A DNA stretch of 37,454 nt, taken from contig QHUE01000091.1 in the NCBI GenBank assembly GCA_003221825.1, positions 1-37,454 of the forward strand. Direction: 5' to 3'. The first letter of the stretch is position 1. Each line of letters opens with the position of its first letter. This stretch comes from Gemmatimonadota bacterium. Lineage in GTDB: Bacteria > Gemmatimonadota > Gemmatimonadetes > Gemmatimonadales > GWC2-71-9. Shown here one piece after another: positions 5,230 to 25,480 of this stretch. The notes below the pieces were generated by a model that worked only from the letters and a program-made list of their open reading frames with translations, did no database searches and was not told the DNA's origin. Both the position numbers and the translations under genes were made by a program.

Positions 5230-6227
5230 GCAACTGCAGCATACGAGGCCTCGAGCACCGCCGCGACCTGGGCGATATCGGCCATCGGGCGGGCGCGGTC
5301 ACCCGAATCGAGCGTGGTCGCGAAATCGTGAAACAGCCCGGCAAACCAGGTCGCGTACGCGGACTTGTCGAGATCGGCGGTATGGTCGAACGACTCCATC
5401 TGGCCGCCCTGCTCGAGCGTCAGGATGCCGCCGCTCCAGGTGATACTGCCGCGCTCGCCGATAAACCGGATCTCCGTCTCCCGTCGCCGCGCCGCCCAGG
5501 TGAGAAACATCGTCGCCATTCGATCGGGATACGAGAACACCAGCTGCGCCGTGTCTTCGACGTCGTAGCCGCCGTGGCGCAGGCGACCGGTCCACGCGCG
5601 CACCGCTTGCGGCGGCCCCGCGACGTCGAGGAGCTCGTAGACGAGGTGGGTACCGTGATCGAGGAGCACGCCGCCACGCCCGGCGGCGCGCCGGCCCCGC
5701 CACGGGACGTCGTCCCTGCCGGCGCCGGGATCGGCCGCGAGCCGATAGACCCGGAACTCCGCGAGATGCCAGCGGCCGATCACACCTTCGTCCAGCCAGC
5801 GTTTCACGCGCAGCCACACCGGATTGAAGCGGTACTGGTGACAGGGCATCACGACGCGACCCGCCTCGTGCGCCGCCGCGGCCAGGGTCGCGGCCTCGGC
5901 GCGGTTCACCGCCACCGGCTTCTCGCACAGGACGTGGTAGCCCTGCGACAGGCCCCAGAGCGATAGCTCCAGGTGCGATGCCGTCGGCGTGCAGATGTCC
6001 ACGAAGTCGATCGGACCGAGGTCGGCGAGCTGCTCGGGACGGGATAATAGAGGAATGCCGAGGAACGTCGACGGCGCCGACATCGCTTCCTCCACGATGC
6101 CGACGATGCGCAGCCGGGAGGCCACCTTCGGATCCGACTGGAACGCAGGGAGATGCCCGGAGCGCGCGATCCCGCCGAGCCCGAGCAGGACACCGCGATA
6201 GACCCGGGCGTCAGGCGAGCTGTGCAT
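5226..6227 (-). CDS. Gfo/Idh/MocA-family NAD(P)-dependent oxidoreductase, 333 aa
   Basis: N-terminal Rossmann segment VLLGLGGIARSGHLPAF, the conserved LCEKPVA (EKP) motif, and a C-terminal alpha/beta domain. Confidence 0.8.
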   Translation of the reverse strand: MHSSPDARVYRGVLLGLGGIARSGHLPAFQSDPKVASRLRIVGIVEEAMSAPSTFLGIPLLSRPEQLADLGPIDFVDICTPTASHLELSLWGLSQGYHVLCEKPVAVNRAEAATLAAAAHEAGRVVMPCHQYRFNPVWLRVKRWLDEGVIGRWHLAEFRVYRLAADPGAGRDDVPWRGRRAAGRGGVLLDHGTHLVYELLDVAGPPQAVRAWTGRLRHGGYDVEDTAQLVFSYPDRMATMFLTWAARRRETEIRFIGERGSITWSGGILTLEQGGQMESFDHTADLDKSAYATWFAGLFHDFATTLDSGDRARPMADIAQVAAVLEASYAAVA

Positions 6228-17001: not shown

Positions 17002-18803
17002 CAGTAGTCCACGGGCCTCAGGTAGAATTCGCCGATTGCAGTCTGTGACAGCACCGCGACGGTGGGCAGCCGGCGCTTCCAGTGGGTCGAGTCGAGACGC
17101 TTCCGTACGATCTCCACCTCTTCCTTAGTAAAGCCGCTCGGGGGGGGCTCCTCGCCGCGGATCAGATGATACAGGATGCGATCCGCGTTGAGGTACGAAA
17201 CGCCCAGGTCTCCTTCGTCTGTCTGGCCCTTGATCAGGTCGGCGGTGGCGGGTTTGCGCACGATGTCGTCGGGGACGCCGACGTGCCGCGCCAGCGCCCA
17301 CACTTGCGTCTTGAACAGATCGCCGAGCGGATTCACGGGCGGCGCGTCGTCACCGTGCCAGGTGAAGTAGCCGAGCAGCCGCTCCGACTTGTTGCTGGTG
17401 CCCAGCGGCAGCGCCTTGTGCTTGGCGGACAGGTCGAACAGCACGATCATCCGCTCGCGCGCCATCACATTGCCGAGCCGGTGCGGGCCGACATCGCCGA
17501 CTTGCTTCAGATAGCCGTCCACGGCGTCGGAGATGTCGACCGTGACGGACGGGATACCGAGGTTGTCGATGACGAGCTGCGCATGCGCGAGACTGTCGGG
17601 GCTCGAGGTCCGATACGGCATGCGCACGCCGATCACGTTGTCTTTGCCGAGCGCCGCGGCGGCCAGAAATGCCGTGAGCGCGGAATCGACGCCGCCCGAC
17701 AACCCGACCAGGCCCTTCTTGAAGCCGCGCCGGCGAACGACTTCGTCTTTCAAGAAACTCACCAACCAACGCCGGGTCAGTTCTGGATCGATGGCGAGGG
17801 GGTCGCCGTCCCGATCGCGGCTGCCTGTTACGATCGGCGCGGCGTGCGGCGTGGGGCGTGCGGCGCTGCTTGCGCCGTTCGTAGCCGGATCAAACTTTAC
17901 TTTGTCATTCTGACTCTTCCCACTCAGGCTCTTCGTGAGGACGGGGAGCGCGCTTTGCAGATCGGCGAGCAGCGGGGAATCAGACCGCGCGGTCGTCAAC
18001 GAATCAAGATCGATGTCGGCCGTGAGCAACGCCTCTTCGAACAGCGGCCCGCGCGCCAGCACTCTCCCGGTCGGATCGATTACCGCCGACGCGCCGGGGA
18101 ACCCCTTGCCGCCTTCGAACCCCACGAGATTCGCGAGCGCGACGAACACGCCGTGCTCCTCGGCGATGCCCCGGACGATGCGCTCCCAGCGAACGACCGA
18201 CGCCGGCAACGTCTCGCCCTCGCAGGCCTCGTCCTCCGGCTCGCCCAGCCCGCGCGCCGGTGATGCACTCGGCACAATGACGAGCTGCGCGCCCTCGAGC
18301 GCGGCGACGGTCGCGGCCAGCGAATGCCAGGCATCCTCGCAAATCAGGATCGCCGCCTTGCCGCCCCACCCCGTCTCGAATGAGCGCACGCCGTCCTGAC
18401 CGCGGTCCACGAAACGCTCTTCGTCGAACACGCCGTAGGTCGGCAGGAACACCTTGCGATGCACGTGACGCACTTCGGGCTTCCGCGTACTGAGCGTGAC
18501 GTACAGCGCGGAGTTGTGAATGTGATTCTGGAAACGCTCGTAGAACCCGACCACGACGTCGATCGCAGGCCCCTGGTAGGCGGCGGCGAGATCACGGGCG
18601 AGCGTGCCGGCCGTCACCGCCAGCTCCTTGACCCCGCCCTCGACGAAGTAGCCCGAGGTTGCGGTTTCGGGAAAGACGACGAGGTCCGGTTTGGGATCGA
18701 GCTGCGCGGCTTGGCTGAGCACAGCGCCGATCCGGGCCACGTTCTCGGCATACTCGCCCTTGGTGGGTCGGAACTGGGAGAGGACGATCCGGATGTGCGC
18801 CAT
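17001..18803 (-). CDS. nadE: Glutamine-dependent NAD+ synthetase (N-terminal CN-hydrolase domain + C-terminal NAD synthetase domain), 600 aa
   Basis: Nitrilase-type domain (VVFPETATSGY, ILICEDAWH) followed by the PP-loop GLSGGVDSALTA. Confidence 0.9.
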   Translation of the reverse strand: MAHIRIVLSQFRPTKGEYAENVARIGAVLSQAAQLDPKPDLVVFPETATSGYFVEGGVKELAVTAGTLARDLAAAYQGPAIDVVVGFYERFQNHIHNSALYVTLSTRKPEVRHVHRKVFLPTYGVFDEERFVDRGQDGVRSFETGWGGKAAILICEDAWHSLAATVAALEGAQLVIVPSASPARGLGEPEDEACEGETLPASVVRWERIVRGIAEEHGVFVALANLVGFEGGKGFPGASAVIDPTGRVLARGPLFEEALLTADIDLDSLTTARSDSPLLADLQSALPVLTKSLSGKSQNDKVKFDPATNGASSAARPTPHAAPIVTGSRDRDGDPLAIDPELTRRWLVSFLKDEVVRRRGFKKGLVGLSGGVDSALTAFLAAAALGKDNVIGVRMPYRTSSPDSLAHAQLVIDNLGIPSVTVDISDAVDGYLKQVGDVGPHRLGNVMARERMIVLFDLSAKHKALPLGTSNKSERLLGYFTWHGDDAPPVNPLGDLFKTQVWALARHVGVPDDIVRKPATADLIKGQTDEGDLGVSYLNADRILYHLIRGEEPPPSGFTKEEVEIVRKRLDSTHWKRRLPTVAVLSQTAIGEFYLRPVDY

Positions 18804-18828
18804 GGGGGAAAGATATTAGCTTGTAGCA

Positions 18829-18876
18829 GGCGATGGAGTTCGCCTTCAACCGCCCTCAGGGCTGATGACTCCTACC
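18829..18876 (+). promoter_or_regulatory. Fluoride riboswitch (crcB motif) aptamer, copy A, orphan
   Basis: GGCGATGGAGTTCGCCTTCAACCGCCCTCAGGGCTGATGACTCCTACC matches the crcB-motif pattern GGCGAUGGnGUUCGCC..AAC.GC-stem-GCUnAUGACnCCUAC. Identical to copy B at 45 of 48 positions (hand count). GATATT lies 11 nt upstream. There is no plus-strand gene downstream. It overlaps the last 7 codons of the minus-strand lipoprotein gene. Confidence 0.8.
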
Positions 18877-20280
18877 GATCACCGCATCGTCAGGAGTGAA
18901 CGCATAGCTGAACAACAGCGTCGTCACTCGGTCGCGGGTTGGGAGTGTCTGGACCGAGGTGGAGACGAGCTGGTACCCTCCCGGCACACTCTTGAACAGC
19001 TGTACCTGAACCGTCTCGGGATACCGGTTGCTCTTGATGTCCACCGAAATCCGGCTGGTCTTGCCGGTCATGCCGGTCGCCGGCGTCGCAAAGCGTGTGA
19101 TGGCGACGTCGTGCGTCCGCACCTGCAGGGTTCGCGTGATCGATCCCGTTCGACCATCGAATGTCGTGACCGTCAGCGTCACCTGGTAATCGCCGTCGAC
19201 CGCGTACCGATGCGTGGGGTTGAAACCCGTGCCCGCCGCCCCGTCGCCGAAATCCCACTGCCGCGTCTGAATCCCGACGCCGCCCGGATCGAACGACTGA
19301 TCGAAGAACTGCACCAGATCGAAGCTCGACGGATCGAACGGCTGGGTGAAGAAGTTCGCCTGCGGAGGGGGCGGCGGCTGGAGCGAGAACGTCGCAGTGC
19401 CGGGCTGATCGCTCCCGACCTGGAAGTAGTAGGTCTGCCCGGCAACCGCCGTGAAGGACACCGGGCCGCTGAAGCTGCTCGCGCAGCGCAGGAACGACAG
19501 ACTATTGAGCGAGGTGCCTTGGTAGACGGTGAGACCATCGAAGAACGGTGCCTGGAGACCGGCCGTAACCGCCTGCGTCGTCGTCGGAGTAAACCGGTAC
19601 CACACCGTTCTCGAATTGAAGAAGCAGAATGCCGGCTCGTTCGGTTCGCGCGTTGCAAAGTCGAAGACCGCTGTCGCCGTGAAGGGTATCCCCGGGGCCA
19701 GCTCCGCATCCGCAAAGTTGTCGTTGCCGCTTGGCGGTGGCGGGGGAGGAGGTGGCGGCGGTCCCGAGTCCTGCTGCAGACTGAAGACCGTCGGACCAGT
19801 CGCGCCGGCGGAATCCGAGATTTGGAAGAAGAACGCCGAGCCCGAATCGGCATTGAACGTGACCGGTCCAAAGTTCGAGTTACATCCCACCGGGATGAGC
19901 GTGTCGGCGCTGACGAAGTACGTCGAAAGGATCCCTGGGGCTGGACCGCGCAGTTGGGCGGTGAGTTGCACGGCACCCGGGGCCTGCGACACATAGACAT
20001 ACCAGACGGTGCGTGTCGGCGCCCCGATCGTGTCGTGACAGACCGACGTGACTTCGCCCGGTTCGACGGTGGCGTTCGTGACGTCCGTGCTGTCGAAGAA
20101 GGGCACGAACGGGATGAATCGCGCGCTGTCACGGTTGTCGTTGGGCGGGGCCGGCGATGCCGTGTCCTGCGCCACGACATCCGGACGGAGCGGCTGCAGC
20201 GGCGTTTCGCGCGTGCACGATGCAACGGCGAGTGCTGCCACAGCGGTGAAGGTGAGAAAGCGGGAAAATCGCGCGAGCAT
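18856..20280 (-). CDS. Secreted lipoprotein with two tandem PPC-like domains, a poly-Pro linker and a PKD domain, 474 aa
   Basis: ATG 20280 is preceded by AAGGAGG 7 nt upstream. Lipobox LAVASC. Two related ~130-aa domains (NDN..A ... TVWY.. ... FSLQ) are separated by a 10-residue proline run (PPPPPPPPPP). PKD signature WDFGDGAAGTGFNPTHRYAVDGDYQVTLTV. Confidence 0.85.
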   Translation of the reverse strand: MLARFSRFLTFTAVAALAVASCTRETPLQPLRPDVVAQDTASPAPPNDNRDSARFIPFVPFFDSTDVTNATVEPGEVTSVCHDTIGAPTRTVWYVYVSQAPGAVQLTAQLRGPAPGILSTYFVSADTLIPVGCNSNFGPVTFNADSGSAFFFQISDSAGATGPTVFSLQQDSGPPPPPPPPPPSGNDNFADAELAPGIPFTATAVFDFATREPNEPAFCFFNSRTVWYRFTPTTTQAVTAGLQAPFFDGLTVYQGTSLNSLSFLRCASSFSGPVSFTAVAGQTYYFQVGSDQPGTATFSLQPPPPPQANFFTQPFDPSSFDLVQFFDQSFDPGGVGIQTRQWDFGDGAAGTGFNPTHRYAVDGDYQVTLTVTTFDGRTGSITRTLQVRTHDVAITRFATPATGMTGKTSRISVDIKSNRYPETVQVQLFKSVPGGYQLVSTSVQTLPTRDRVTTLLFSYAFTPDDAVIGRSHQP

Positions 20281-20373
20281 GGATAGGCCTCCTTTGTAAA
20301 GGAGCTGCGATCGGACCGCGCGATTGTATATGGAGGGCGGCAAGCGAGCGTCAAGAAGCTATATTCTCCAACA

Positions 20374-20421
20374 GGCGATGGAGTTCGCCTTTAACCGCCC
20401 TACGGGCTGATGACTCCTACC
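20374..20421 (+). promoter_or_regulatory. Fluoride riboswitch (crcB motif) aptamer, copy B, upstream of crcB
   Basis: GGCGATGGAGTTCGCCTTTAACCGCCCTACGGGCTGATGACTCCTACC. TATATT (20360-20365) lies 8 nt upstream. It is followed by a terminator/SD platform and crcB. Confidence 0.9.
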
Positions 20422-20452
20422 CGAAACCACCAACGGCAGGAGTCTTTTCTTT
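20412..20452 (+). terminator. Riboswitch expression platform: terminator hairpin sharing the aptamer 3' strand
   Basis: GACTCCT (20412-20418, part of the aptamer) can pair with AGGAGTC (20438-20444), followed by TTTTCTTT. The AGGAG also serves as the SD for the TTG start at 20451. Confidence 0.5.
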
Positions 20453-20825
20453 GACTATCCTCTACATCGTCCTGGGCGGTGTCGCCGGAACATTGTCGCG
20501 CTACGGCCTCGAAGGTTGGATTCACGGCCGCATGGCGAGCGGCTTCCCACTGGGTACTCTGACTGTCAACATCGTCGGGTCCCTGCTCCTCGGGTTCATC
20601 CTGCGGATCGCAACCGGCGCGGTGGTGATCTCGCCCGACCTGCGGGCGGGTCTCACCATCGGCTTTTGCGGTGCCTTCACCACGATGAGCACGTTCAGCT
20701 ACGAGAGCGTCACCCTGCTCCACGACGGCGATTACCTTCGCGCCGTCCTCTACATGGGCGCAACGATCGGGGGCTGCGTCGTCGCGGTGGTCTTTGGAAC
20801 GGCGCTCGGCGACAAACTCCTGTGA
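20451..20825 (+). CDS. crcB: Fluoride ion channel CrcB/Fluc, 124 aa
   Basis: (TTG)TILYIVLGGVAGTLSRYGL..., GTLTVNIVGSLLLGF, GFCGAFTTMSTFSYE. Sits directly behind a fluoride riboswitch. Confidence 0.9.
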   Translation: MTILYIVLGGVAGTLSRYGLEGWIHGRMASGFPLGTLTVNIVGSLLLGFILRIATGAVVISPDLRAGLTIGFCGAFTTMSTFSYESVTLLHDGDYLRAVLYMGATIGGCVVAVVFGTALGDKLL

Positions 20826-20832
20826 GGTTCCG

Positions 20833-21177
20833 ATGACCGAACGATTCCGCGGCGAACGCACGCTGATGCGCGTCTTTATCGGCGAAAGCGACAAGTATCA
20901 CGGCAAGCCCCTGTACGAAGCGTTGCTCGAGCGCTTCCGCAGTAGAGGCCTGGCCGGCGCGACCGTGCTGCGGGGAGTCGCGGGATTCGGCGCGTCCAGC
21001 AAGCTCCACACCGACAAAGTGCTCCGGCTCTCGATGGATCTTCCGATGATCATCGAAGTGGTCGAAACCGACGAGGTGATTCAGGCGCTGCTGCCGGATC
21101 TGAGCGAGATGATCGGTGGCGGGTTGATCACGCTTGAGAAGGCAAACGTGATCCTCTATCGACCGGGATCCAGCTAA
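20833..21177 (+). CDS. DUF190 (PII-like) protein commonly linked to crcB, 114 aa
   Basis: MRVFIGESDKYHGKPLYEALLERFRSRGLAGATVLRGVAGFG.. is typical of DUF190. ATG 20833 has GAGG upstream. Confidence 0.75.
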   Translation: MTERFRGERTLMRVFIGESDKYHGKPLYEALLERFRSRGLAGATVLRGVAGFGASSKLHTDKVLRLSMDLPMIIEVVETDEVIQALLPDLSEMIGGGLITLEKANVILYRPGSS

Positions 21178-22447
21178 GCCCCCAGGTCACCAACAGCACG
21201 ACGACACCGAACAATACAACCTTCGGTTGGGCGATCACCGCCCCGACAAAGAGCGCCGCGTACACGGCAATGAACGCCGCCGGCAGCAATGGATACAGCG
21301 GCACGCGAAACGGCGCGAAGGACGCACGCGCGCGCAGTCTAAACAGTGATGCCACGGTCAGGCCATCGATCACCAGTATCAGCACGATCGCCCGGGCAAG
21401 CAGCTGGGCGAATGTGCCTGTCGCCGCCAGCGTCATCGACACGGCGCTCACGAGCACCATCGCCGTCCAGGGCGTGCCGCCGCGGTTGACGCGCATGAGC
21501 GCGGCGGGGCCCAGCCCGTCCCGTGACAAACCGAAGATCACGCGGGGCGTCACGAACACGTTGCCGTTGAGGGACGCGAGCACGACGAGCAGAGCGAGGA
21601 CCGCGATGATGAGGCCGCCCTTGGCGCCAAAGATGGCCATGGCCACGTCACCCGCGACGAGGTTCGACGCTGCCACCTGTTCGAACGGCAACACGTGCAG
21701 GAACGCCGCATTGAGCAGGAGATACAGGGCGGTCACGACGGCGATGCCGAGGATGAAAATGCGCGGCAGGGTACGCTCGGGCTCCACAACCTCCTCCGCG
21801 ATCTTCGCCGCGTCCACCGATCCGTAGTACGACCACATCACGGGCTGTGCTGCGACGGCCAGTGCCGCGACCACCTGCCAACCCTGAGGTGCGCCCGGCA
21901 GGACGCCGTGCCAGCCGGTACCGTGTCCCGCGACGAACGCCGCGATGACCACGCCGCCGAGCGCCAGCACCTTGGCCGCCGTCACGACGTTCTGAACCCA
22001 GCGGCCGGAGTTGATGCCCAGGAGATTGATGCAGATGAACAATCCGACGATCACCACCGCGATCCAGCGCGTCCATTCGGCCGGCCATCCAGCGATCCGG
22101 GCGCTGAACTCCGCCGCGGCGACGCCGATGGCAGCGATCGCGGCGGTGTAGATCGCCAACCCTTCCACCCACCCGACGACGAATCCCGCCCGGCGCCCGA
22201 ATGCCTCGCGCGCGTACACGTACTTGCCGCCCGCCCGTGGATACCGCGTCGCCAGCTCGGCGAACACGAGCGCCCCGAGCAACGCGAGCGCGCCACCCAA
22301 CACCCACGCGACGAACGTGAGCCCGGGGCGGCCGAGCTGGTTCGCAACCTCCCCCGGAGTCCGAAAAATCCCCGAGCCCACCATGATGCCGACGACCATG
22401 GCGAGGCCGTCGAACAAACGAAGCGACCGTTTCAGCTCGATGCTCAC
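21128..22447 (-). CDS. APC-family amino acid permease, 439 aa
   Basis: About 12 TM segments. N-terminal signature LFDGLAMVVGIMVGSGIFRTPGEVA. GTG start at 22447. The 3' end overlaps the convergent DUF190 gene by 50 nt. Confidence 0.8.
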   Translation of the reverse strand: MSIELKRSLRLFDGLAMVVGIMVGSGIFRTPGEVANQLGRPGLTFVAWVLGGALALLGALVFAELATRYPRAGGKYVYAREAFGRRAGFVVGWVEGLAIYTAAIAAIGVAAAEFSARIAGWPAEWTRWIAVVIVGLFICINLLGINSGRWVQNVVTAAKVLALGGVVIAAFVAGHGTGWHGVLPGAPQGWQVVAALAVAAQPVMWSYYGSVDAAKIAEEVVEPERTLPRIFILGIAVVTALYLLLNAAFLHVLPFEQVAASNLVAGDVAMAIFGAKGGLIIAVLALLVVLASLNGNVFVTPRVIFGLSRDGLGPAALMRVNRGGTPWTAMVLVSAVSMTLAATGTFAQLLARAIVLILVIDGLTVASLFRLRARASFAPFRVPLYPLLPAAFIAVYAALFVGAVIAQPKVVLFGVVVLLVTWGLSWIPVDRGSRLPSQA

Positions 22448-22529
22448 CGGCCGAAACGGTCGCTCCGAACTGCGAGAGTTGCTAGAGGCTCAGGCGGAAC
22501 TCATTGAGACACATGGGTATCTAGGTGCC

Positions 22530-24755
22530 ATGCGACTGTCGCTGCGATTTGTCGTCCCGCTGCTGGTCGCCCTCGGCATCTTCGCCTACGCGGCCCTCCC
22601 GCTGGTGGACAGGCTCATGCTCCGCTGGTTCAGCCGCGACCTCGAGGTGCGCGCCAACCTGATTGCGACTACGGTCGACGATCCGCTCCATACCCTGATT
22701 CGGACCGGCGACCGCAGCCGCATCCAGGAGTTCTTCACGCGCCTGACGCAGGACGAGCGCCTGTTCGCCGTCGCGTTCTGTCCCCCAGAGACCGGCGACC
22801 CTGTCGCGACCCCGACATTGCCGGCGGAAGTGCGCTGCTCCGACTTGGGCCGCTTCACCGAGCCGGCGGGCGATCTGCTGCAGACCGCGACCGGTCCCGT
22901 GTTCATCTCGGTGCGCCCGCTGGTCGGTGGCGGGAAGCTCGTGCTGGTGCACGACATGAGCTTCATCGCGCGCCGCAGCCGCGAGACCCGCGACTATCTC
23001 TTCCTCTTCTTTGTCGGGCTCGGCCTCACCGTCGCGCTCATCACCGTGGTGATCGCGCAGCTGTCCTGGCGCGGCTGGGTGCAGGGATTGCGCGCATTGC
23101 TGCGCGGCGAGGGTCTGCTGCGACCGTCGGGCAAGCCGTACGTCCCCGAGCTGCGCCCTATCGCGCGCGACCTGCGAGCGCTGATCCGCGACCTCGAGGC
23201 GGCGCCCCGACGCCTCGATGAGGACCACGTGGCCTGGACGCCCGACACGCTGCGCACCCTGCTGCGCGGAGAGCTGCGCGGGCAGGAGGTGATCGTGGTC
23301 TCGAACCGCGAGCCATACATCCACATGCGGCAGAACGGCGAGATCAAGGTTTGGCGCCCCGCGAGCGGCCTCGTGACCGCGCTCGAGCCCGTCATGCGCG
23401 CGTGCTCAGGTACCTGGATCGCGCACGGCGGCGGCTCGGCCGACCGCGACGTCGTGGACGCGCACGACCGCATCGCGGTCCCGCCGCCCCCCGCGCCGCC
23501 CGCGTATCAGCTGCGCCGCGTCTGGCTGACCGAGCAACAGGAAGCGGGCTACTACTACGGGTTCGCCAACGAGGGGCTGTGGCCGCTCTGTCACATCGCG
23601 CACGTGCGCCCGACATTCCGCACCTCAGACTGGGAGCAGTACGCCGCGGCCAACCGCCTGTTCGCGCGCGCGGTGGCCGACGAGGCCCGCTCGGACGACC
23701 CGATCGTCCTGGTGCACGACTATCACTTCGCGTTGCTGCCGCGCCTGATCCGCGAGTCGCTGCCCGAGGCGACCATCATCACGTTCTGGCACATTCCGTG
23801 GCCCAACCCGGAGGCGTTCGGAATCTGCCCGTGGCGCGAAGAGGTCCTCGACGGCCTGCTGGGCAGCAGCATCCTCGGATTCCACACACAGTTCCATTGC
23901 AACAATTTCCTGGACACGATCGAGCGCCTCATCGAGGCGCGCGTCGACCGCGAGATGTTTACCGTCTCCTACCGCGGCGAGTTGACGGCCGTCAAACGCT
24001 ACCCGATCTCGATCGAGTGGCCGGCGTCGCGTGCCGCCACGGCCGCGTCCGTCGAGCAATGCCGCGCCGCCCTGCGACAGCGCCACGGGTTACCCGAGGG
24101 GCACGCCATCGGCATCGGAGTGGACCGACTCGACTACACCAAGGGCGTGGAGGAGCGGCTGCGTGCCATCGAGCGGCTGTTCGAGCTGCAGCCCGAATGG
24201 CTGGGCAAGTTCACGTTCGTGCAGCTCGCGGCGCCGACGCGCACGCGCATCGAACACTACCAGCAATACCAGGCGCGGGTCGAGGCGCTGGCGGCACGCA
24301 TCAACGAGCGGTTCAAGCACGCGGCACACCCCGCCGTCATCCTGAGAATCGAGCACCACGAGCCTGAGTCCGTCTACGAGTACTACCGCGGCGCCGATGT
24401 GTGCGTCGTGACGAGCCTGCACGATGGGATGAACCTGGTGGCGAAGGAGTTCGTCGCCGCGCGCGATGATAACGCCGGCGTGCTCATCCTGAGCCAGTTT
24501 ACCGGAGCCGCGCGCGAGCTGCCCGAGGCGGTCATCGTAAACCCCTACGACACCGACCAGTGCGCCGCCGCGCTCCAGCTCGCGCTCACGATGCCCAAAG
24601 AGGAGCAGCGCGCCCGGATGCGGCTCATGCGCGAGCTGATCAAGGAGTTCAACGTGTACCGCTGGGCGGGCCGGATGCTGCGCGATGCCGCTGGCATGCG
24701 GCGGCGGGGACGCCTCTCGCACAGCGCGGTCGCGGTGGCCCGGGCCGCGTTGTGA
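22530..24755 (+). CDS. otsA: Trehalose-6-phosphate synthase (GT20) with a ~250-aa N-terminal two-TM sensor-like extension, 741 aa
   Basis: GT20 core ([17 protein letters not shown]-like [53 protein letters not shown]). The N-terminus has [23 protein letters not shown] (TM1), about 190 aa, then [23 protein letters not shown] (TM2). The start at ATG 22530 is chosen to avoid overlapping the divergent permease. Confidence 0.85.
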
Positions 24756-25480
24756 GGCGCGACGCACCTCCCCCCCTGCCACACGATGCATGGGCTTACT
24801 TCTTTGATCTCGACGGGACGTTGCTCGACTTCACGGATCCGCCAGGTGCCGTCCGTATCGACGACGCGTTGCGCGCGCAGATCGCCCGCCTCCACGACAG
24901 GACGGGAGGCGCCGTGGCATTGATCAGTGGCCGCGCGCTCGCCGACATCGATGACCTGCTCGACGGCGTCCGTCTCCCGGTGGCGGGCCAGCACGGCACC
25001 GAGCGGCGCGACGCCCGCGGCCGCGTCTCGCATCACGACTTTCCGCACGCGCGTCTGGACTGGGCACACGCGCGCCTGGCGGAGGCGATCGCCGGCCGGG
25101 CCGGATTGCTGCTCGAACACAAGGGACTGTCGCTCGCCCTCCATTACCGCCGCGCGCCGCGCCTCGGCGGGTACGCGCACCGACTCGTCGGATCGCTGGC
25201 GCCCACCCTCGGCGCCGAATTCTGCATCCAGCCCGGGAAGCGGATCGTCGAAGTGAAGCCCGCCGGGAAGGACAAGGGCGTCGCCTTGGTGGAGTTCATG
25301 GCCGAGGAGCCCTTTCGCGGGCGCACGCCGGTCTTCGTCGGAGACGACCTCACGGACGAGTACGGCTTCGAGGCCGTGAACCGCCTGAGCGGCCACTCGA
25401 TCAAAGTGGGGGCGGGCCGCACGGTCGCCCGCTGGCGCCTGCCGCACGTGCGCGCGGTGCGGGAGTGGCTGGCATCGTGA
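24752..25480 (+). CDS. otsB: Trehalose-6-phosphate phosphatase (HAD-IIB), 242 aa
   Basis: YFFDLDGTLLDF (D-x-D), ALISGR, KDKG and VFVGDDLTDE. GTG 24752 overlaps the otsA TGA (GTGA). Confidence 0.85.
   Translation: MRRDAPPPLPHDAWAYFFDLDGTLLDFTDPPGAVRIDDALRAQIARLHDRTGGAVALISGRALADIDDLLDGVRLPVAGQHGTERRDARGRVSHHDFPHARLDWAHARLAEAIAGRAGLLLEHKGLSLALHYRRAPRLGGYAHRLVGSLAPTLGAEFCIQPGKRIVEVKPAGKDKGVALVEFMAEEPFRGRTPVFVGDDLTDEYGFEAVNRLSGHSIKVGAGRTVARWRLPHVRAVREWLAS

Follow-up and report, generated by a model that had tools for sequence, protein, structure and literature searches.

In fluoride riboswitches (family RF01734, crcB), fluoride stabilizes a pseudoknot and thereby blocks formation of a terminator. 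Tandem riboswitches, for example those for glycine and the two-aptamer logic gates, lie to our knowledge within one leader. The DNA analyzed here, a stretch of 37,454 nucleotides (nt) from a Gemmatimonadota bacterium (contig QHUE01000091.1, hereafter the window), holds two fluoride aptamers: copy B stands directly before crcB and a DUF190 gene, and copy A, an orphan, stands beside nadE and points antisense into the 3' end of a PKD-domain lipoprotein gene (the PKD gene) that separates the two. Like tandem riboswitches, these are two aptamers of the same class on the same strand and near one operon; they differ in their spacing of 1545 nt, within which a convergent 1.4-kb gene lies, in having their own promoter-like boxes, in not sharing one leader, and in not being conserved as a pair.

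Riboswitch-regulated antisense RNAs offer a second comparison, namely, the B12 riboswitch/AspocR system in Listeria (Mellin 2013, PMC3740843) and the ubiG-operon S-box antisense RNA of Clostridium acetobutylicum (Andre 2008, PMC2566862), both cited in PMC5473149. As reported, they resemble copy A in that an aptamer stands at the head of what could be a transcript antisense to a neighboring gene. They differ in that a terminator under ligand control separates aptamer and antisense portion and in having experimental support, whereas copy A, a case from sequence, has no terminator and no conservation. A limited literature search found no report of a fluoride riboswitch in an antisense-RNA role. 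The third comparison is homology-facilitated (or short-patch) illegitimate recombination when foreign DNA is taken up, in which one end is homologous, the other is illegitimate, and insertion is coupled with deletion (PMC3240628). The copy A locus has the same makeup, with a homeologous end in nadE, an end at a 4-nt microhomology, and 59 nt in place of 195 nt, and on these grounds we would assign it to this class; it differs in being a case from comparative sequence with no exact donor found, and in that the homologous anchor kept in the window is very short (~60 to 70 nt, diverged). We consider it likely that copy A is the scar of a recent, strain-private recombination, that is, an imported allele of the ancestral riboswitch and not a paralogue that arose in situ.

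Copy A and its foreign-like patch

An Rfam search of the whole window at curated thresholds returned exactly two matches, both to RF01734, both on the plus strand, and both over the full model (positions 1 to 64), at 63.2 bits for copy A and 65.9 bits for copy B against a gathering score of 34 bits (Table 1). An earlier sequence-only reading of this DNA had proposed two fluoride riboswitches in direct orientation and had named this search as one check; the search bore it out. That reading had also placed all three differences between the aptamers in a linker or the P3 loop, and a repeat finder agreed: positions 18827-18876 and 20372-20421 are 47/50 identical in direct orientation, with exact shared runs of 20, 9, and 18 nt and mismatches at one base of the linker (TTC/TTT) and two of the P3 loop (TCA/TAC). 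When 33 Gemmatimonadales aptamers (copies A and B plus 31 from related genomes) were aligned, 28 columns were invariant and 11 more were at least 90% conserved; both copies kept all of these, and variation across the clade fell mainly in the linker and P3 loop. Conserved core and pseudoknot nucleotides are retained in each copy (P1 loop GAUGGAGUU; 3' CUGAUGACUCCUAC), the GGAGU/ACUCC pseudoknot bases among them. The window thus contains two real, well-formed fluoride riboswitches, each of which would be expected to bind fluoride. Since the aptamer core is near-invariant across the order, the 47/50 identity of the two copies is a sign neither of recent duplication nor of age.

Conspecific contigs allowed the breakpoints around copy A to be placed to the base pair. 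They were collected via two PKD proteins, P0001 and P0026 (L081-L084), and via the window's exact DUF190 protein (L091-L098); ten of them, from ten samples or assemblies (L081-L084, L091-L095, and L097), carried a full-length or frameshifted PKD gene. Over 18875-25177 the window differs from L091 at 2/6303 nt and from L092 at 3/6303 nt. In every conspecific contig long enough to include the PKD 3' end, BLAST homology to the window breaks off at 18875, and in the eight with sufficient nadE sequence it begins again at 18815. In this interval the common allele has 195 nt, made up of the final 31 codons of the PKD gene plus a palindrome, and the window has 59 nt, comprising copy A. Exactly one aptamer was found in each conspecific contig covering the crcB-side site by a clade-specific covariance model (R1), and a search with this model of 99 sequences (~1.18 Mb) found two aptamers only in the window; among those sequences, the ten conspecific contigs included, no relative had a second aptamer in the copy A arrangement.

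Mismatches on the nadE side proved to be clustered and pointed to a different lineage. Of 32 mismatches between the window and L081 there, spread over 3098 nt, 25 were confined to 201 nt (P = 4e-24, binomial), and against the closest backgrounds (L092 and L095) all 18 nearby differences lay within 18744-18807. Outside the cluster the window follows its own species: over 18404-18610 it is identical to its conspecifics, L092 included, at 207/207 positions and 84% identical to L074, and over 18611-18743 it is identical to L092 at 133/133 positions and 80% identical to L074, a contig from a different lineage whose nadE is 88% identical at the protein level and whose locus has the ancestral layout without the PKD gene. 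Over 18744-18815, in contrast, identity to conspecifics is 54/72 (75%) and to L074 66/72 (92%), and over 18816-18833 the respective values are 6/18 and 17/18. A patch at ~18744-18875 therefore has the affinity of a PKD-less lineage and is embedded in an L092-like background.

The left edge of this patch lies at or just before 18744, and its right edge is a CCGA microhomology at 18875-18878. Its ~132 nt (about 18744-18875) replace the first ~60 nt of nadE (18744-18803), the palindrome, and the last 31 PKD codons. At the right join, in plus orientation, the recipient reads ...GACTTTC-CCGA-TCACCGCATCGTCAGGAGT..., an L074-type donor reads ...GACTCCTA-CCGA-AACCATCCACGGCAGGAGT..., and the window reads ...GACTCCTA-CCGA-TCACCGC...; the patch product accordingly has one junction in homologous (homeologous) nadE sequence and one at the 4-nt microhomology. 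The junction sequence of the window allele is GGTGATCGGTAGGAGTCATC, and the donor allele sought would read GATCCGGATGTGCGCCATGGGGGAAAGATATTAGCTTGTAGC, followed by the terminator and crcB.

These observations suggest a history in three steps. In the ancestral state, crcB with its riboswitch and nadE would have diverged from a shared ~100-nt promoter region. At an older date, a full-length PKD gene together with a palindromic repeat would have been inserted between the riboswitch and nadE, with one aptamer staying by crcB. Recently, a related lineage with the ancestral layout, of which L074 is the closest sampled, would have contributed a short DNA segment that recombined into the window's strain by homology-facilitated illegitimate or short-patch recombination. 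The nadE end of the imported DNA would have recombined by sequence similarity near 18744; the other end, stopping just past the aptamer, would have been joined illegitimately at CCGA inside PKD codon Gly469, a join that would have deleted 195 nt and added a second promoter-plus-aptamer next to nadE. Three features taken together would give the direction, namely, that the PKD gene is truncated in the window, that the patch is foreign-like, and that the gene is full length elsewhere; the window would accordingly be the derived state.

Several points weigh against this history. None of the sampled sequences is the exact donor, L074 being only the nearest (6 mismatches in 72 nt), and a donor search with a 206- to 266-nt tract among 80 nadE loci found no lineage closer than the conspecifics. 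A third-sequence comparison of polarity over a 194-nt nadE tract left both alleles ~80 to 84% identical to outgroups, as part of the tract (18615-18737) is an unrelated polymorphism; since L092 and L095 share the window's alleles at those positions, the tract could be narrowed to the 72-nt block, which then gave a clear polarity. The recombinant allele has been seen once, in the window only: neither the nadE product of the window nor its truncated PKD product had an exact protein match on record, and the JGI metagenome collection gave 0 matches each for a copy A 36-mer and a degenerate aptamer/PKD junction pattern. The absence of decay in the copy A aptamer is expected of a young event and equally of a functional element, and the view that copy A is nonfunctional relies on its lack of conservation and of an expression platform.

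Two further short tracts of polymorphism were seen among the conspecific contigs. At 18615-18737 (nadE codons ~23 to 63), seven linked sites form two haplotypes that are independent of the aptamer patch, with L092 and L095 agreeing with the window and L081, L091, L093, L094, and L097 carrying the other. At 20898-21084, inside the DUF190 gene, the window and L081 differ at 22 positions in ~190 nt and almost nowhere else, and L084 shares 21034-21084 only; this looks like another short recombination patch, and the population looks like a mosaic of short imported tracts.

An allele seen once could also be an artifact, that is, an assembly or sequencing chimera in which a ~132-nt patch from a co-occurring related population entered via a chimeric read or the assembler, with the palindrome possibly contributing. 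The patch falls short of a typical read length, these soils harbor related populations together, and the true path holds a long palindrome. Long palindromes are hard to sequence and to assemble. We nevertheless regard a chimera as quite unlikely. The right join shares 4 nt (CCGA), far too short for a join in a k-mer graph; the same strain background resumes on both sides, with 2 to 3 mismatches in 6.3 kb; and the two other mosaic patches (18615-18737 and 20898-21084) indicate that real short-tract recombination is common in this population.

Ancestral nadE locus and a probable older PKD insertion

A scan with the nadE protein, with one genome per species, yielded 80 Gemmatimonadales loci at 58 to 93% identity, whose neighboring genes were mapped by tblastn and whose aptamers were identified by pattern and by R1. 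The recurrent order is AA-permease, then DUF190, crcB, and the aptamer on one strand, then nadE and 4HBT on the other, with no PKD gene. In 31/80 loci an aptamer was found on the crcB side upstream of nadE, again with no PKD gene between. Compact nadE-crcB spacers are ~102 nt long, of the form CATG.GGGAAAGATATTAGCTT..AGC-[aptamer]-CTCCTACC.GAACCA.C.ACGGCAGGAGTTTTTCTTTGAC, and place the aptamer ~25 nt from the nadE start. The two copies in the window divide this spacer between them: copy A keeps its nadE-side flank, and copy B keeps its crcB-side terminator and start codon. The flank upstream of copy A (CATGGGGGAAAGATATTAGCTTGT) is identical to that of L074, is nearly so in L001, L007, L013, L016, L021, and L058, and matches the ancestral nadE-adjacent flank, not the flank of copy B.

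Two variants of the crcB side were encountered in the same scan. At eight loci (L026, L043, L046, L048, L049, L054, L055, and L075), a conserved open reading frame (ORF) of ~130 to 145 amino acids (aa) lies between the aptamer/terminator and crcB-DUF190; exemplified by L026:6113-6514 on the minus strand, it has the motif MTQQLLNHNQRRRL...RRRIAAVAEIWAVRVEDL...YGAVHPDL..., no Pfam-A hit at E <= 1, and a sole NCBIfam hit that is meaningless (E 0.077). It is apparently an uncharacterized gene under fluoride-riboswitch control. At L050:5581-6076, the aptamer (6011-6076) lies only ~100 nt from DUF190 with a 19-residue crcB fragment between, and crcB appears to have been largely deleted, leaving the riboswitch and DUF190.

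The PKD gene is full length at the nadE locus across lineages with 60 to 86% PKD identity as well as in P0001, a protein of 501 aa that is 99% identical to the window's product and has a full C terminus (ending ...DDAVIGKVTFRAVATIMGARDALPADNEAIGNPTKVIR). Products of this lipoprotein family are normally about 500 aa long, as judged by a protein search. Among the 80 loci, L006, L025, L030, and L050 have the PKD gene upstream of nadE; their products are ~31 residues longer than the window's (...FTPDDAIIGKVTFRAV...PTKV.R*), and the gene is followed by a GC-rich palindrome and then by GTATCTTTCC..ATG of nadE. A permissive Rfam search of these four loci found no aptamer remnant between PKD and nadE and only one aptamer, that of L050, on the crcB side; six further PKD-bearing contigs (L085-L090) likewise had at most one aptamer each, on the crcB side. 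The PKD gene and palindrome thus appear as an older insertion between riboswitch and nadE that left one aptamer on the crcB side. In the window, by comparison, the antisense strand of the copy A aptamer supplies the last five PKD codons and the stop (RSHQP*). As the sequence-only reading had it, copy A overlaps the 3' end of this gene, last codons included; the stop codon (TCA, 18856-18858) lies in the P3 loop.

A different lesion is present at L084:6001-7416, where the frame is shifted beyond codon ~350 by an insertion of 25 nt with substitutions next to it; the product, P0026, has 471 aa and no called Pfam domain. This is a second, independent disruption of the PKD gene in the species and suggests that the gene is dispensable.

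The palindrome resembles repetitive extragenic palindromic (REP) sequences or miniature inverted-repeat transposable elements (MITE), has GACGGTA(A/G)GGG repeats (...GACGGTAGGGGACGGTAGGGGCGCAGCATGCTGCGCCCCTAC...CTACCGTCCCTTACCGTC), and in many lineages stands at one and the same hotspot (GAAAGATA) beside nadE. It was located at L081:7505-7601, at equivalent sites in L082, L084, L091-L095, and L097, and beside nadE in L004, L005, L011, L020, and L033; in L020 it lies directly before crcB, where other genomes have the aptamer. A search of the window at up to 3 mismatches gave 0 matches, since the sole local copy would have been deleted by the recombination.

The ancestral layout bears on a rival origin for copy A, by which insertion of the PKD gene into the expression platform of the riboswitch duplicated ~70 nt in situ and left copies A and B as paralogues of a single event. 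This was one option of the sequence-only reading, and the relatives that it called for, with nadE adjoining riboswitch-crcB and no lipoprotein gene, do exist among the Gemmatimonadales. The direct orientation and the 47/50 identity of the cores are also as a duplication would have them, although the near-invariance of the core across the order leaves that identity uninformative on age. The insertion-linked duplication itself did not hold up, and we judge it highly improbable. Conspecific and more distant genomes carry the PKD gene with a single aptamer, so the gene was long at this locus before copy A would have arrived on its patch of foreign-allele DNA; the window's PKD gene is 3' truncated relative to all homologues; and the ~72 nt of nadE and leader that accompany copy A are 75% identical to conspecifics and 92% identical to another lineage. 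The repeat, moreover, ends at the aptamer. The ~20 nt of extra similarity previously read as extending through a shared CAGGAGT does not reflect shared descent, because on the copy A side these bases are antisense PKD codons present in aptamer-free conspecific PKD genes; what had been taken for a ~70-nt direct repeat consists of an aptamer stretch of ~50 nt followed by PKD coding sequence that is similar by coincidence. Gene conversion within the genome, with copy B as the source, was considered and rejected, as the flank of copy A is the ancestral nadE flank and is accompanied by foreign nadE sequence.

Table 1. Features of the window around the two fluoride riboswitch copies
Feature	Coordinates	Strand	Evidence
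nadE, glutamine-dependent NAD synthetase, 600 aa	17001-18803	-	Pfam NAD_synthase 216 bits, CN_hydrolase 103 bits
Probable imported patch: nadE 5' end, 12-nt leader, ancestral promoter flank, complete aptamer	18744-18878		Block test, BLAST breaks
Putative -10-like box GATATT of copy A, in ancestral nadE/riboswitch divergent promoter flank GAAAGATATTAGCTT	18812-18817	+	Inferred
Fluoride riboswitch aptamer copy A (orphan)	18820-18881	+	RF01734 63.2 bits, E 2e-15; R1 74.8 bits
PKD-domain lipoprotein gene, 3' truncated, 474 aa versus 501 aa	18856-20280	-	Pfam PKD_4 54.6 bits
Fortuitous hairpin ACUCCU...AGGAGU, -11.9 kcal/mol, no U-tract	18868-18897	+	Fold
Putative -10-like box TATATT of copy B	20360-20365	+	Sequence, same in L081; inferred from position only
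Fluoride riboswitch aptamer copy B (resident)	20365-20426	+	RF01734 65.9 bits, E 2.6e-16; R1 79.2 bits
Copy B expression platform: terminator stem GACUCCU/AGGAGUC, -13.0 kcal/mol, plus U-tract	20412-20452	+	Fold z = -3.4; platform conserved in relatives
crcB, fluoride channel, 124 aa	20451-20825	+	Pfam CRCB 98 bits
DUF190 gene, co-oriented with crcB	20833-21177	+	Pfam DUF190 133 bits

Regulatory potential of the two copies

Both copies match the full RF01734 model, and copy B is a classic member of the family. Its terminator (arms GACTCCT, 20412-20418, and AGGAGTC, 20438-20444, followed by TTTTCTTT, also given as UUUUCUUU) overlaps the 3' pseudoknot strand, with ACUCC forming part of the 5' arm, so that, as in the class, where the stem may be a terminator or may sequester the Shine-Dalgarno sequence, a platform stem competes with the pseudoknot and a fluoride-toxicity gene, of the group that includes crcB and eriC-F, lies downstream. 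Sequence, fold, and Pfam matches agree with the earlier description of copy B as having a terminator and being followed by crcB and DUF190. The AGGAG of the 3' arm stands 8 nt before the TTG start of crcB and is likely the Shine-Dalgarno sequence of that gene. An aptamer of the copy B type has the same 79.2-bit R1 score in every conspecific contig covering the crcB-side site, and the copy B sequence is identical in L081, L082, and L084, which were compared directly. Copy B is most likely the resident, working fluoride ON-switch for crcB-DUF190, with an anatomy that follows the class mechanism: fluoride would stabilize the GGAGU:ACUCC pseudoknot and prevent the terminator, which would otherwise stop transcription and occlude the likely crcB ribosome-binding site.

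Copy A differs from the family in having no U-tract and no downstream gene, in running antisense into a truncated gene, and in owing one hairpin arm to accident; it has neither a native expression platform nor a fluoride-toxicity gene downstream. The AT-rich -10-like boxes that had been noted before each copy are present in the sequence (Table 1). A consensus sigma-70 promoter and terminator scan of 18500-20700 returned 0 sites and did not flag even the copy B terminator, so that both boxes are positional assignments and the promoter calls rest on position and conservation. With promoter flank and aptamer intact, transcription probably still starts at copy A, and its RNA probably binds fluoride.

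What follows the aptamer on the copy A side was contributed by the PKD gene. The hairpin arms are ACTCCT (18868-18873), from the aptamer tail, and AGGAGT (18892-18897); the latter, together with the loop from 18875 onward, is antisense PKD coding sequence (codons G-I-V-A-D-D-P-T), with AGGAGT being the antisense of ACT CCT (Thr-Pro). The codons ACT CCT GAC (Thr-Pro-Asp) are unchanged in the full-length PKD genes of L081 and L082 and in L084, where no aptamer is present at that site. Since they pre-exist in aptamer-less alleles, the hairpin is a coincidence of the join, neither inherited nor selected. The sequence-only reading was thus right that copy A has a stem partner AGGAGT and no U-tract and wrong that this arm had been retained. 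Selection for the rare codons ACT CCT as a means of rebuilding a terminator arm was rejected for the same reason, as the same codons occur in the aptamer-less conspecific alleles. That reading had also reported no plus-strand ORF after copy A; one of 473 aa does exist (18865-20286, beginning at the aptamer AUG). We rejected it as a real gene, as it has no Pfam hit and its GC content by codon position (0.785/0.538/0.589) mirrors that of the PKD frame (0.592/0.537/0.785).

Copy A transcripts running antisense into the PKD gene might nonetheless constitute a fluoride-responsive antisense RNA, nascent or functional, that tunes PKD or PKD-nadE expression. The pseudoknot would compete with the ACUCCU/AGGAGU hairpin, and fluoride, by tipping the balance, would alter transcript elongation, stability, or the loading of Rho. 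Copy A has an intact promoter flank and aptamer, the -11.9 kcal/mol hairpin uses the pseudoknot strand and approaches the -13.0 kcal/mol of copy B, and riboswitch-controlled antisense RNAs exist for other ligands (PMC2566862 and PMC3740843, cited in PMC5473149). Yet neither a U-tract nor a terminator-like site at which a ligand-dependent stop could occur follows copy A within 18500-20700, the 3' arm of the hairpin is accidental, the arrangement is private to one sequence, and the PKD gene, as the target, is itself truncated. We hold this reading and its proposed mechanism, taken jointly, to be very unlikely. A slightly smaller chance still is given to copy A being a newborn regulatory element, in which a transplanted promoter and aptamer met chance Thr-Pro codons that supplied the AGGAGU arm, such that fluoride could affect what becomes of an antisense RNA, for example via its stability or its accessibility to Rho, and thereby PKD-nadE expression. 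If true, this would be the first fluoride-riboswitch-controlled antisense transcript, born by recombination rather than by gradual evolution.

The sequence-only reading had further offered a long-range tandem arrangement, in which transcripts from copy A read 1.5 kb through the PKD gene in antisense into copy B and crcB, thereby adding a second promoter and two-aptamer logic. The copies have the same orientation, and the consensus scan found no terminator-like site between them. Such a transcript would, however, include 1.4 kb of untranslated RNA running head-on against the PKD gene, and copy B's own terminator would still gate it, so that no new logic would arise. Copies separated by 1545 nt are also unlike the single leader of known tandem riboswitches, and the arrangement is not conserved. 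We consider such a tandem extremely improbable.

Under the imported-patch history that we favor, copy A would at most yield a fluoride-independent (unregulated) antisense transcript into the truncated PKD gene, which Rho or a collision with PKD transcription would probably terminate. Its arrangement is private to one sequence and so offers no evidence of selection. With neither a terminator nor a gene to control, copy A is most likely an unselected passenger.

Meaning of an orphan riboswitch

The locus carries a caution, in that an orphan riboswitch pointing antisense into a neighboring gene resembles a new regulatory layout and is here explained by strain-level recombination, with comparison of conspecific contigs giving the breakpoints to the base pair. 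It implies no new mechanism of fluoride sensing or gene control; copy A is an ordinary member of its RNA family in an accidental context. Recombination between the two 50-nt direct repeats could in turn delete the truncated PKD gene and restore the ancestral arrangement of nadE beside riboswitch-crcB. More generally, a complete promoter-plus-aptamer module appears to be movable on ~130 nt of DNA, which may be one way in which riboswitches could gain new targets.

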